From a virus (Duplodnaviria > Heunggongvirae > Uroviricota > Caudoviricetes): a stretch of DNA of 38,835 bases. The translations under genes were made by a program, and so were the position numbers. The DNA is taken from IMG/VR virus record IMGVR_UViG_2734482565_000006. One strand, 5' to 3'. The notes beneath the pieces are model-generated. The model worked only from the letters and a program-made list of their open reading frames with translations, made no database searches and was not told the DNA's origin. Below are positions 12,262 through 16,800 of the stretch, in pieces; position 1 is the first letter of the stretch; each line of letters opens with the position of its first letter.

Positions 12262-14305
12262 AGTTCCCTCCGTTCCAGACGTTCACATCCAGGCCATGCT
12301 GTGCGGTATCATCCACATCAATACTGCGCGCCCGCCAGCCTTCAGGGGCAACAAGCTCCACCCGTGCGGCGGTTTTCGCGGTGGCCTGTCCGCCGTTTTC
12401 GTCACTGCCGCCACGCAGTTTCTGCCAGGCCTGCGTCAGCCAGCCCCCCAGATAATCACCGAGATAGCTGCCCACCGTGGAACCAATGGCAACCCCGACC
12501 GGACCGGCAGCCGCCCCCAGCGCGCCACCGGCGATACTTCCGGCAAGGGAACCCACGGCACCGGCTTTATCGGCTGCACTGGCGCTGCTGTCCAGCAGTA
12601 CAGGAGCCGCCATGGCACCGGCCCACAGGGCACCACCACCCAGCCGACCGGCACCACGGAACAGCCCGGCAAAACGCCCCAGCCCCATGCGGTTTCCGGC
12701 CGCCGTTAGCAGACCACCGGCACGGCTCATCATACGACCGAAGAAGCCCTGTTTACCGGCACTCTCCGCCAGTTGCTCACCGGCAGTCACGACGGTCGTG
12801 ACACCCCGTCCACGTCCGGGGCCGCGTTTTTTACGGCCGCGCACGGTTTTGCCGTCACCGCTGACCACCACATCCCCGCCACCTGAGGCCAGGCCACCCG
12901 CAGGCCAATTGGTGACCAGCACGGGCTGAACGGCAGCCGGATTTACCCCGGTAAGGAAATTCAGGAACCGGCCAGCGCGTCCGGGCTGCGTTCCCGGTAC
13001 AGTGGTCTGCGGTTTGCGGAAGGGCGACGTCAGCACGGAGGTCATCGCCATGCCATAGCGTAAGGGGGTTGCGCCGAGACGTAATGCCCCCGTCCCCGCA
13101 AACCTGAGCACCTTCAGCGCACGGGAGGCGAGATACATATACATCAGGTACTTTGCGGCGGTCTGCGCACCCTGACCAATGCGATCCAGCGCATCGCCAT
13201 AACCGGCGTCGCGCAGTGCCTGAAGCGTTTCCCTGACTTTCTGAATGACCCGGTAAAAGCCGGTCGCAGCGTCTCTGGCATACTCAAATCCCTGATTCAG
13301 GGCTGAGGCCGTCTGTGTGGCCAGCTTATCCTGTAAGCCGCTTTTCTGTGCCGCATCAGCATAATCCAGAAAGCCTTTCAGGCTCTTTTTCAGGCTGTCA
13401 AACGGTCCCTTTGCCATCACCTCGCGGGCAAATCCGTCCCAGACATCGCCCATCATGGACGTCATTCCCGTCCAGGAATTCATGGCGTTTTTCTGGGCAC
13501 CTTTTGCCTGTTCGGCCATCACCTGAAATAACAGGCGAATGCTGTCCGGTCCCAGTTTTCCTTTCTCGCCTTTCTCACGGATGATCTTCTGGTTTACACC
13601 CAGCTTATCGGCCAGCAACTGGTAAACGTTAATCCCGTATCCGGTCAGAATATTGGCGTCCGCTGCCTGGATACTCTGGCGGGCAAACATCTGTTTGAGT
13701 TGCAGGGACGCACCCTGTGCATCTGACAGTGACCAGCCGTGATAGCCGCCCTGATCCTGAAGCATGGTAATAAAGCGACGGGCTTCCCTGTCACTCATAC
13801 CGAACCCGCGACTGGAGGCGTATTCCTGCATAACCCCCGCCAGCCCCCAGGTGGTGTCTTTGGCGTTCTGTACCGCCCAGGCTTTCACTGCTTCCGTTTT
13901 TGCCGTATCGCCATGATTAATGGCGTTGAGACGCAGAATATAGTTCTCCATCTCTGCGGCCGGGCGGATAAAGGCTTTATTAAACCCGTAGACCGCAGCC
14001 CCTCCCGCCAGCATCCCGTAAAGGTTGCTTATCCGCCCGATGGTGCCGGTAATGCTGCCCTGAAGGCGGTCAAAATCTGACGTCACCGTGCGGATACTGC
14101 CACGAACACCGGCAAGCGTTCGCTGCATACGGGAGCCGACAAGTTCTGTCTCCTGACCGGCACGACGTGCTGCATTTCCAAGACCACCCAGCCCCGTCCT
14201 GCCGGAACGGGAGAATGCCCCCAGCTCCTGTGACCACTGGCGGGATTTGGCAGAAATATTGCCGAGTAAATCGACAATCAGGGAGGCTTTCAGGTTTTTT
14301 GCCAT
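12248..14305 (-). CDS. tail tape measure protein
   Basis: 685 aa; extended Gly/Ala-rich C-terminal region and helical N-terminal part; positioned after the tail tube and chaperone genes. Confidence 0.85.
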   Translation of the reverse strand: MAKNLKASLIVDLLGNISAKSRQWSQELGAFSRSGRTGLGGLGNAARRAGQETELVGSRMQRTLAGVRGSIRTVTSDFDRLQGSITGTIGRISNLYGMLAGGAAVYGFNKAFIRPAAEMENYILRLNAINHGDTAKTEAVKAWAVQNAKDTTWGLAGVMQEYASSRGFGMSDREARRFITMLQDQGGYHGWSLSDAQGASLQLKQMFARQSIQAADANILTGYGINVYQLLADKLGVNQKIIREKGEKGKLGPDSIRLLFQVMAEQAKGAQKNAMNSWTGMTSMMGDVWDGFAREVMAKGPFDSLKKSLKGFLDYADAAQKSGLQDKLATQTASALNQGFEYARDAATGFYRVIQKVRETLQALRDAGYGDALDRIGQGAQTAAKYLMYMYLASRALKVLRFAGTGALRLGATPLRYGMAMTSVLTSPFRKPQTTVPGTQPGRAGRFLNFLTGVNPAAVQPVLVTNWPAGGLASGGGDVVVSGDGKTVRGRKKRGPGRGRGVTTVVTAGEQLAESAGKQGFFGRMMSRAGGLLTAAGNRMGLGRFAGLFRGAGRLGGGALWAGAMAAPVLLDSSASAADKAGAVGSLAGSIAGGALGAAAGPVGVAIGSTVGSYLGDYLGGWLTQAWQKLRGGSDENGGQATAKTAARVELVAPEGWRARSIDVDDTAQHGLDVNVWNGGNYGLY

Positions 14306-14308
14306 GGG

Positions 14309-14509
14309 TTACTGCTTCGTTCTGAGAATTTTTTCGGTCTGTCGGCAGTGCCGGTAAAGCTGCGATAAGGGGAGGTTAAGCGCCCACTCCGGGCCGCTTT
14401 TTGTCACCATCCCCAGCACAATTGCGGCTTCTTCAATCTGATCCCGGCACTGCATCTGGTCGCCCCCGTTCAGCGACCAGCTTTCCGGCCATCGCGGAAT
14501 CAAGCAGGC
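14309..14509 (-). CDS. open frame filling the gap between tail chaperone and tape measure (possible +1 recoding extension or independent small ORF)
   Basis: A 66-codon open window in the +1 frame relative to gp41 begins right after a UAA at 14510..14512, overlaps the last 25 codons of gp41 and ends 4 nt before the tape measure ATG. An internal ATG at 14455 has GGGGG upstream. Confidence 0.3.
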   Translation of the reverse strand, partial: ACLIPRWPESWSLNGGDQMQCRDQIEEAAIVLGMVTKSGPEWALNLPLSQLYRHCRQTEKILRTKQ

Positions 14510-14909
14510 TTACTGCCGCCATCAGTCGGGAGAGATCGCGCTCGCTGAGCTGTCCTATCTGACGCGGAGACAATGGCCCCTCAATCTGGCCGACAGCGGC
14601 AATCTGACGGCGCAGCAGCGCAATGCCGCGCAGTGCCGGTGAGGCCACAAGAACCGGACCGTTTCGGGTTTCCATAAGACGCTCGGCCTCGCTCTCCGCA
14701 TCAATGCTGTCTTTTGCCGTCAGTTCGCGGAAGGTGACGCGGTATTCACGGGATTCCCCGAACGGCAGACCGTCGAGCAGATCCACATAGCCGTTCGCCA
14801 GTTGTTCAGCCAGCCCGGCGGTGCGGGGATCGCCGTCTTCAAGTGCATCCCGGATAGCCTCCATCACGGCCTCGTCAGAAACCGCCGTTTTTTTCTTACG
14901 TGTGCTCAT
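14433..14909 (-). CDS. tail assembly chaperone-like protein (Mu gp41-like)
   Basis: 158 aa, acidic, located between the tail tube and tape measure genes. Confidence 0.6.
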   Translation of the reverse strand: MSTRKKKTAVSDEAVMEAIRDALEDGDPRTAGLAEQLANGYVDLLDGLPFGESREYRVTFRELTAKDSIDAESEAERLMETRNGPVLVASPALRGIALLRRQIAAVGQIEGPLSPRQIGQLSERDLSRLMAAVSLLDSAMAGKLVAERGRPDAVPGSD

Positions 14910-14923
14910 TACATTTTTCCTGA

Positions 14924-15289
14924 TTACTGGACACGGGTACTGGTGGCGCTGGCGAACTTCGCGGAGATATCACCACCACCGTCAAGCGAGGCCGGTTCAC
15001 TGCTCCAGGCCTTCGTCATCATGTGGACTTCACCGGTATCGGCCACGAACTCAATCGTGACCGCAGTCCAGGTGTTGATTTCATCGGCAGCCGGTGAACC
15101 TTCTCCGCCCGCCGGGAATTTACAGTCCAGCGTCGCCTCACGGGGTTTCTCGCGATAGCCGTAAACTTTCGCGCCTTTCACCACTTCACGCTCAAAGCCG
15201 GACGGGGAGAACGTGGCCCCCTCAAGGGTGTCGTACTCCTGCCCGTTCACACGGATGGTGGCCGTGCCCTGATACTGTTTTCCGCTCAT
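14924..15289 (-). CDS. tail tube protein (Mu M-like)
   Basis: 121 aa, immediately downstream of the sheath gene. Confidence 0.8.
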   Translation of the reverse strand: MSGKQYQGTATIRVNGQEYDTLEGATFSPSGFEREVVKGAKVYGYREKPREATLDCKFPAGGEGSPAADEINTWTAVTIEFVADTGEVHMMTKAWSSEPASLDGGGDISAKFASATSTRVQ

Positions 15290-15297
15290 GCCTTACC

Positions 15298-16800
15298 TCA
15301 CAAAATGAAACGGATCTGCGCGGCCATGAAGCGGAACTGGTTAACCAGATCCGGTGTACACATCACATCCAGACGGTTACGGTCTTTTGTGTTGCGCTCC
15401 ACGAGCAGATTCTTTTTAAAGGTGTCCAGATTTTCGACCAGTCCCAGATCCACCCATTCTTCCCCCAGCGAAATTAACTGAAGTTTCATGATCTCCGGTG
15501 TCACGATATTCTGACCGGCACGAACGGGCGTCCCGTCATCAGCCAGTTTATGGCGCGGAAAACGCTGCGTGATAAAGGTGCGCAGGGAATAACGCAGATA
15601 TGACAGGGTGTAGATGGTTTCCACATCCAGATAGCTGGGATCGATTTCGCCGTATGCATTCTGACGGTACATCGTCACCTGACGTTCAATCTGCACCACA
15701 TCCGCGGCCGCGACGGTCACCGTGGACATGCCGGTATAAAGCAGGCTGTTTCGCTCTTCCCGCGTCAGACGATCCGGTGCTTCAGGTGCCATACGGGCAG
15801 GCAGCGCCAGTGTCTGTAATGGTCGGGCCGGATCCGTTGACAGGGAGGGCGCACAGACCGCACAAATGGAGGCAGCCCAGACATAATCCGGCTCTGGTGC
15901 TTTAGGAATAGAAGTGCAGGTAAACAGGAAGTCATTACGGGATTCACCAAAACTGGTTGCCGTACCGAAGGTGCCGGTATGCGCCATCCAGACCATACCG
16001 TCCGACATTTTTACCGGTCCCCAGCGTTTCAGCAGTTCATCCGCCAGAATTTTGAGATTTGCCGCATCCTTATAGGGCATGACGATGTAGTTGTACTGAC
16101 GATTCCCCATCCCTGAGACGCTACGGGTGATATCGGGGTTTGTTGCCTTCTGTGTTGGCGCGACGAGCTCCAGCGTAAGACCGGCCGGTGTAGTTTCACC
16201 GTCATAATAGTTCACCCGTAAATCATGAGCTGAGCATTCACCGATAAAGCGGGCGTTAACCCCCATGCTGCCTTTAAGTCCTTCAGCATTATCACCACTG
16301 ACTTCAGCTGCGATAGCAGTGAATGGCGCATCAGTGTCAGCGTTAATGACCTTAGCCAGCTCTTCCACAAGCTCTTTACCTTTTTTCCCCTTACTGACGG
16401 GCAGGAGGTAACGGCGACCGCCGATGTAAACACTTAACACCCCGTCTGCCAATGCTGTTCCAATGATATTCATCACGCATGCCCTGGACTGACCTGTTCC
16501 AGCCCCCTGTGCAATGGCATATAACTCTGTGTCAGGGTTAATGGCGATAAATTCCTCTACCATCAGTGCAATCATGGAACCTCGCCCCCAGAGTTCTCTT
16601 GCTTGTGAAGCTCGGGTAATACGTACTGGTACATCAAGCTGACCGCGCCCCTGAATGGTAGTGTCTTTCATTGCAGCCTGACCAAACAACAGTACCGCCT
16701 GACGCTGTGGTGGAGTGCCGGTCACGGCCATTGAATTATTGATTTCAATCTGTACCAGCGGAATGCGATTGTTATCGCCGATATAATCAAAGTTAATCAT
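15298..16800 (-). CDS. contractile tail sheath protein (Mu L-like)
   Basis: 500 aa; ATGA start/stop overlap with the upstream gene; size and position of the sheath. Confidence 0.85.
   Translation of the reverse strand: MINFDYIGDNNRIPLVQIEINNSMAVTGTPPQRQAVLLFGQAAMKDTTIQGRGQLDVPVRITRASQARELWGRGSMIALMVEEFIAINPDTELYAIAQGAGTGQSRACVMNIIGTALADGVLSVYIGGRRYLLPVSKGKKGKELVEELAKVINADTDAPFTAIAAEVSGDNAEGLKGSMGVNARFIGECSAHDLRVNYYDGETTPAGLTLELVAPTQKATNPDITRSVSGMGNRQYNYIVMPYKDAANLKILADELLKRWGPVKMSDGMVWMAHTGTFGTATSFGESRNDFLFTCTSIPKAPEPDYVWAASICAVCAPSLSTDPARPLQTLALPARMAPEAPDRLTREERNSLLYTGMSTVTVAAADVVQIERQVTMYRQNAYGEIDPSYLDVETIYTLSYLRYSLRTFITQRFPRHKLADDGTPVRAGQNIVTPEIMKLQLISLGEEWVDLGLVENLDTFKKNLLVERNTKDRNRLDVMCTPDLVNQFRFMAAQIRFIL

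Follow-up and report, generated by a model that had tools for sequence, protein, structure and literature searches.

A probable Mu-type programmed frameshift extends the tail assembly chaperone of an Escherichia coli Mu-like prophage

What is encoded in the short gap between the tail assembly chaperone gene and the tape measure gene of a Mu-like prophage, and how do ribosomes reach it? The window analyzed here, the whole stretch of 38,835 nucleotides, is an E. coli Mu-like prophage distinct from Mu itself. According to its list of open reading frames (ORFs), the whole tail region lies on the minus strand, and the genes follow the order sheath, tube, gp41-like protein and tape measure, a contractile-tail module of the Mu-like kind (table 1). 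A preliminary description of this DNA had proposed that the 125 bp between the chaperone and tape measure genes are not intergenic. The gap does prove to be coding, although its length is 127 nt (14432..14306).

Table 1. Coordinates of the tail genes and of the elements at the junction of the chaperone and tape measure genes
Feature	Coordinates	Strand	Basis
Tail sheath gene	15298..16800	−	Pfam Phage_sheath_1 and Phage_sheath_1C
Tail tube gene	14924..15289	−	Pfam Tail_tube, E 3e-30
gp41-like tail assembly chaperone, zero frame, 158 aa + stop	14433..14909	−	ORF list, Pfam, PHROGs
Slip site GG_GGG_CGA	14460..14467	−	sequence, relatives
Extension ('T' part), −2/+1 frame	14309..14461	−	translation, tblastn, phrog_12783, codon-position variation
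Stop-to-stop open stretch, 66 sense codons	14309..14512	−	sequence
ATG 14455-14453 of a 48-codon ORF, lineage-specific	14453..14455	−	window-type sequences only
Stem 5' arm GCAGUGCCGG, candidate 3' frameshift stimulator	14444..14453	−	folding, alignment, shuffles
Stem 3' arm CCGGCACUGC	14345..14354	−	same basis as 5' arm
Tape measure protein gene, 685 aa	12248..14305	−	Pfam TMP_3, E 2e-17; start homologous to Mu's

The ORF upstream of the gap belongs to the Pfam family Gp41_Mu (PF23746; E 3.3e-32, 111 bits against a cut-off of 27), matches the 'tail assembly chaperone' family phrog_508 (E 5e-43) and is ~50% identical to Mu gp41 (tblastn, E 2e-27), from which it differs by an N-terminus that is 14 residues longer (158 versus 144 aa). 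Its match to Phage_TAC_7, a model that covers P2 E, is weak and falls below the cut-off (23.6 against 25 bits). Mu was reached by protein-level searches only, and DNA-level searches of a phage collection, for near and distant relatives alike, returned only two records of Stx-converting phages, in which the gap is unannotated. An 801-nt query around the site is 100% identical in the chromosomes of E. coli JE86-ST05 and 600029, and related copies are present in 228 of 5426 complete E. coli genomes.

The open stretch reported in the preliminary description is present as claimed. In the +1 frame relative to the chaperone gene, 66 sense codons (14509..14312) lie between one TAA at 14512-14510 and another at 14311-14309; this run overlaps the last ~25 chaperone codons, and 3 nt (CCC) separate its closing stop from the tape measure ATG at 14305. 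Taken alone, a run of this length is unremarkable: 8% of the stop-free runs in the +1 frame of the long ORFs of this window reach at least 66 codons, and from 16% of in-gene positions the +1 frame is open for 51 codons (P ~0.16 in a window of 54% G+C). Thus, the open stretch can be regarded as real because it is conserved in relatives, and not because of its length. The −1 frame is indeed closed, as had been stated, with several stops in the overlap and closure 19 codons past the slip site, and a −1 shift of the lambda or P2 type was excluded on this ground.

Near the end of the chaperone gene lies the sequence GAA_CGG_GGG_CGA (14471..14460), which corresponds to codons 147-150 of 158, with CGG (14468-14466) encoding R148, GGG (14465-14463) G149 and CGA (14462-14460) R150. 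These 12 nt, GAACGGGGGCGA, are identical to those of Mu despite the divergence of the flanking protein. In the GenBank record of Mu (AF083977) the product Mu_56, named 'tail assembly chaperone frameshift product', is annotated as a 'verified −2 translational frameshift' with a note citing PMID 15469818, and the length of its two-piece CDS, 188 aa, is that expected of a −2 join rather than of a +1 join. The shift in Mu is likewise described as −2 in PMC5009743, and its efficiency has been given as ~2.2% (PMC3498833). It has been explained as tandem −2 slippage on GG_GGG_CGA, where the tRNA-Arg in the A site finds a better match in the −2 than in the −1 frame (PMC3458567), and the Mu 10-mer alone gave 14% shifting in a purified in vitro system (bioRxiv 10.1101/2025.10.02.679949). 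Our literature search by motif string returned only unrelated papers on EGR1 sites.

The likeness to Mu is not confined to the 12 nt. It includes the position of the gene between those for the tube and the tape measure, membership of the Gp41_Mu family, the target frame, the downstream stem described below, and a homologous extension (53% identity, E 3e-13 in tblastn) that ends just before the tape measure start. This extension comprises 50 codons (14461..14312) and the stop TAA at 14311-14309. It belongs to phrog_12783 (E 1e-36), which PHROGs labels 'unknown function'; no model in Pfam or NCBIfam covers it, and no sequence relative of the fusion protein was found in the PDB. The two systems also differ. 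The zero-frame tail past the slip site has 8 residues here and 6 in Mu, an ATG in the extension frame occurs in this lineage but not in Mu, and the extension stop is separated from the tape measure ATG by 3 nt with almost no Shine–Dalgarno (SD) sequence here, whereas Mu has 14 nt with an annotated AGGA. Furthermore, the Mu shift has been verified experimentally, whereas the present one is predicted from the sequence. Every defining feature of a Mu-type frameshifted chaperone that lends itself to such a comparison was found in the prophage. We are therefore highly confident that the chaperone reading frame is recoded into the −2/+1 frame at GG_GGG_CGA by a programmed frameshift of the Mu type. 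The recoding system is a known one, and the prophage is a new, so far unannotated member of it. With respect to the '+1 recoding' of the preliminary description, the continuation of the chaperone into the +1 frame is upheld and the direction is probably wrong, given that the identical site of Mu is a verified −2 site.

Conservation was assessed in two sets of relatives. The first consisted of seven annotated phages, namely, Mu, D108, Pasteurella Pmp9, Alteromonadaceae B23, Shewanella MuM16-2, Vibrio 1.028.O and Vibrio martha, and the second of 80 IMG/VR loci. From 86 sequences and the window, 60 distinct regions were obtained; D108 was examined apart, and one locus (L038) was set aside owing to an indel in its G-run. 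The 60 relatives derive from phages of Escherichia, Yersinia, Shigella, Pasteurella, Vibrio, Shewanella and Alteromonadaceae and from IMG/VR contigs. All 60 distinct relatives have G_GGG_CGA in register towards the 3' end of the chaperone ORF, and 52 of them carry the full GG_GGG_CGA. The preliminary description had suggested a comparison of the overlap frame across related prophages and had named stops in that frame as evidence against its proposal; the extension frame is open for 47-52 codons in 60 of 60. At each of 25 representative loci the extension ends within −23 to +14 nt of the tape measure start. In the 70 IMG/VR loci with the full GGGGGCGA motif the −1 frame runs into a stop after 2-35 codons, and the seven annotated phages and the sampled variants with four G's have it closed as well.

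Loci from other species were collected by a scan of genome contigs with alignment A4, which is narrower than the seven-phage alignment A1, the latter being too diverse. Eleven usable loci were found, in Citrobacter, Kluyvera, Erwinia, Sodalis, Pantoea, Apirhabdus and [Haemophilus] felis, and nine of these have both the extension frame and the slip site intact; the two others are the copies in Erwinia and in Kluyvera genomosp. 3.

The pattern of substitution provides a further line of evidence. Within the clade of the window, in the part of the gap that does not overlap gp41, the variable columns number 12, 5 and 27 at the first, second and third codon positions of the extension, and the codon differences from the window are 9 synonymous to 3 nonsynonymous in one close relative (L021) and 10 to 3 in another (L022). 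This excess of variation at third positions is what marks a translated sequence, and it shows the extension to be under protein-coding selection. Based on these comparisons, we conclude that the gap is coding and that a conserved slip site gives access to it from the chaperone frame.

The second proposal of the preliminary description was that the gap yields an independently initiated 48-aa peptide from the ATG at 14455, and hence a protein translated separately from the chaperone. The length of 48 codons is correct, and the start codon is not conserved: it is found only in window-type sequences, is replaced by GCG in relatives that are ~85% identical (L021-L029), and has no counterpart in the Mu clade, where no start codon lies near this position and three sequences lack ATG, GTG and TTG throughout the extension frame. 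A G-run 7 nt upstream of this ATG could form an SD-like duplex of −9.0 kcal/mol, equal to those of real genes of the window; this G-run is the slip site itself. Several annotations also favor a separate gene. D108 is annotated with gene 41.5, PGAP calls a 48-aa hypothetical protein in strain M3, and PHROGs keeps the extension as the stand-alone phrog_12783, so that gene 41.5, phrog_12783 and WP_001149937.1 all present the stretch that is a frameshift extension in Mu as a stand-alone hypothetical protein of ~48 aa. The gene 41.5 call, however, requires a CTG start. We regard such small-ORF records as an annotation convention, and not as evidence of a separate gene. Moreover, conservation of the extension begins at the slip site, upstream of ATG 14455, with the residues GD or GE; the ATG stands at the foot of the conserved stem; and a search of the gap found no promoter or terminator. 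A separate 48-aa gene is, on this evidence, a very improbable account of the gap. Independent initiation may occur a little, as a minor by-product in the window-type lineage, and is not what conserves the sequence.

With a frameshift at the end of the chaperone gene as the favored explanation, its direction has to be considered, since −2 and +1 slips enter the same frame, −2 adding one residue, and the sequence alone fits both. In a +1 slip the P-site tRNA-Gly would move from GGG to GGC while the rare CGA waits, which would give a fusion of 199 aa, one junction residue shorter, with the junction peptide RGDQMQCRDQIE. Decoding of CGA is slow in E. coli, a property that counts in favor of such a slip. 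In addition, variants with four G's retain everything that a +1 slip needs and lose perfect −2 re-pairing, and the in vitro reporter used for the Mu site did not separate −2 from +1. Against these points stands the identical site of Mu, annotated as verified −2 with a 188-aa product and called −2 in reviews. Codon choice points the same way: in 52 of 60 relatives the codon that precedes GGG has GG as its last two bases, and of the six Arg codons only CGG or AGG are used there, a preference that only a backward slip explains. Finally, a 3' stem at short spacing pulls the mRNA towards −1 or −2, and in a eukaryotic system −2 shifting was favored over −1 when the spacer was short (PMC3458567). We thus consider the +1 slip unlikely, and the shift at 14467..14460 is, by analogy with Mu, most likely −2.

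The four-G variants bear on this question in their own right. Eight of the 60 relatives have AAG, CAG or TCG before GGG_CGA and keep the homologous extension. Across all loci, variants with AAG, CAG, TCG or GCG in this position and an intact extension were seen in L032-L036, L042, L075, L076, L092, L099 and L101. With four G's, perfect re-pairing of the P-site tRNA after a −2 slip is impossible, and these variants may shift less, differently or by +1. At the other extreme, one locus (L095) has a run of seven G's at the slip site.

The same fusion could in principle arise from RNA polymerase slippage on the run of five G's, with one G lost or two gained, such that the frames are joined in a minority of mRNAs. 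The site is a homopolymer, and database versions with four G's and fused frames do exist (L093, L094 and L038). Known cases of transcriptional slippage use longer runs of A or T, for which five G's are short. Furthermore, slippage of the polymerase assigns no role to the invariant CGA or to a stem at ribosome-scale spacing, and the four-G variants retain the extension. The Mu 10-mer also shifts in a purified translation system, though transcription occurs there too. Taken together, these observations leave a transcriptional origin of the fusion exceedingly improbable, and we retain slippage of the ribosome as the explanation.

The fused versions deserve separate mention. In Erwinia tracheiphila ICMP 5845 (L093, 1347), Kluyvera genomosp. 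3 YDC799 (L094) and the IMG/VR locus L038, the site reads CGG_GGC_GAG, with four G's where close relatives have five, and the chaperone and extension as a result form a single ORF. A second deletion in a G-run is found downstream in L094 and L038. These copies reflect either homopolymer sequencing error or prophage decay; were the L093 sequence genuine, it would be a natural 'fusion-only' allele. In Apirhabdus apintestini (L102; CP138906, ~1100-1150) there is an additional disruption of the gp41-like frame upstream of an intact slip site and extension, and this copy is likely a decaying prophage or an assembly error.

Downstream of the slip site, comparison of relatives reveals a conserved RNA stem. 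In the minimum free energy (MFE) fold of the window, the 5' arm begins 6 nt after CGA and is perfectly complementary to the 3' arm (table 1), the two enclosing a loop of 89 nt. The helix recurs in Mu, where it reaches 12 bp, GCGGUGCCGGAA/UUCCGGCACUGC, and RNAalifold predicts it independently from 32 distinct sequences of the window/Mu clade aligned without gaps. Across the E. coli/Mu clade it is a long-range helix of 10-14 bp with a loop of 85-89 nt that spans most of the coding region of the extension. Within its 10-bp core, 319 of 320 cells form standard pairs. The pair 33-129 (numbering of alignment A2), which joins the third position of a Cys codon in the first arm with the third position of an Arg codon in the second, occurs as CG in 13 sequences, UG in 13, UA in 5 and UU in 1, and never as C-A. 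One G-C to A-U double change is seen at each of the pairs 32-130 and 36-126, and one of these two changes alters the amino acids on both sides, Cys to Tyr together with His to Tyr. The entropy of third codon positions is 0.27 bits in the arms and 1.2 outside, and near-invariant third positions account for 6 of 8 in the arms versus 2 of 39 elsewhere. This low entropy indicates a constraint on the arms beyond that imposed by the protein.

Shuffling supports the placement of the stem as well. For the window, a stem of equal strength at the same spacing appeared in 1 of 1000 dinucleotide shuffles, and for eight representatives a stem 4-6 nt after CGA was matched in 1-13 of 1000. The Pasteurellaceae-type clade has a local hairpin, spaced exactly 6 nt from CGA, in which pairs covary, and stems of unrelated sequence are found in other lineages, namely, GGGGUGGGUGCG/CGCAUUCACCCU in L078, CGCAGCGGCC/GGCUGCUGCG in L089 and AAGUCGCUGACU/AGUCAGCGAUUU in Vibrio 1.028.O. 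In the B23-like and Shewanella/martha lineages, a test for ungapped stems gave nothing significant, and only interrupted stems are present there. The compensatory changes are few, amounting to four pairs and eight cells; a covariation score as high as the observed one arose in 49 of 500 shuffles, and an equal percentage of paired positions in 273 of 500. The arms encode the conserved residues C-R and R-H-C, and their conservation is accordingly in part at the level of the protein. The fold energy of single sequences and of the whole region is ordinary (z ~−1), and the case for the stem therefore rests on the comparative data. An Rfam search at the slip site identified no family. We found no description of this stem in the literature, and it may already stand in Xu et al. 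(2004; PMID 15469818) or Baranov et al. (2006).

In the MFE fold of the window the slip site is also enclosed by a 9-bp hairpin, CUGGUCGCU/GGCGACCAG, which pairs 14480-14472 with 14464-14456 and places the slip site in its loop and 3' arm. Neither Mu nor the relatives at 85% identity are able to form this hairpin. It looks lineage-specific, and it was dropped as a candidate regulator.

On the basis of these features and of the Mu precedent, we infer that ribosomes slip at this site in the prophage and propose the following scheme. The majority of ribosomes would terminate at the gp41 stop at 14433 and produce the 158-aa chaperone. A minority, perhaps a few percent, would slip 2 nt back on GG_GGG_CGA, while tRNA-Gly occupies GGG and tRNA-Arg the rare CGA, and the stem probably stimulates this step. 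The slipped ribosomes would then read the 50 codons of the extension up to its stop and yield a predicted fusion of 200 aa, join(14909..14460, 14461..14312). The predicted junction peptide is RGRDQMQCRDQIE for a tandem −2 slip and RGGDQMQCRDQIE for a −2 slip of the P-site tRNA only.

The two-product arrangement suggests a role in tail assembly by analogy with lambda gpG/gpGT, of which the Mu-type frameshift is a functional analogue; the functional model of gpG/gpGT on which we draw is that of PMC5009743. The N-terminal part shared by both products would bind or coat the tape measure protein, and recruitment of the tube subunit would fall to the extension. The frequency of slipping would fix the ratio of the two chaperone forms, and, as in lambda, neither would end up in the virion. 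The analogy holds at the level of function: no sequence similarity to lambda G/T was detectable, and lambda gpG/gpGT and P2 gpE/gpE+E' employ a −1 slip on an X_XXY_YYZ heptamer, whereas the site here is GG_GGG_CGA and leads into the −2/+1 frame.

The near absence of an SD sequence before the tape measure gene raises a further possibility. The SD interaction of ATG 14305 amounts to −1.4 kcal/mol, compared with −4 to −10 kcal/mol for neighboring genes, and initiation of the tape measure might be coupled to frameshifted ribosomes. We tentatively suggest, as a proposal that we hold with less than even confidence, that the −2 slip of Mu-like tail chaperones depends on a stem 4-6 nt past CGA and that, in this prophage, the tape measure protein is made in part through re-initiation by the ribosomes that have shifted. 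If re-initiation is true, the dosage of the tape measure protein would be tied to the frequency of the slip.

As a discovery the present finding is modest, in that it re-identifies a mechanism established for Mu in 2004. The elements that are possibly new are the 3' stem at fixed spacing, the natural four-G variants and the near-absent SD sequence before the tape measure ATG. To our knowledge, natural −2 frameshifts are rare. The comparison shows that the invariant core of the site is G_GGG_CGA and not the full run of five G's, that four-G variants exist in nature, and that most lineages have a stem at a fixed short spacing; the set of relatives is thus a ready collection of natural variants for the study of −2 stimulation.

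For annotation, this locus should be represented in the manner of the Mu record, by a joined CDS with ribosomal slippage. RefSeq and PGAP leave the frameshift product unannotated in both JE86-ST05 and M3. In the RefSeq version of JE86-ST05 (L010, NZ_AP022815, 1196-1801) no feature fills the gap and the tape measure gene is marked as a frameshifted pseudogene, and in strain M3 (L011, 1049-1195) the protein called in the gap is WP_001149937.1. The two Stx-converting phage records (LC727881.1 and LC727895.1; L003) contain an inserted Mu-like phage that is ~90% identical to the window across the junction of the chaperone and tape measure genes, and in both records this insertion is annotated as a misc_feature only.
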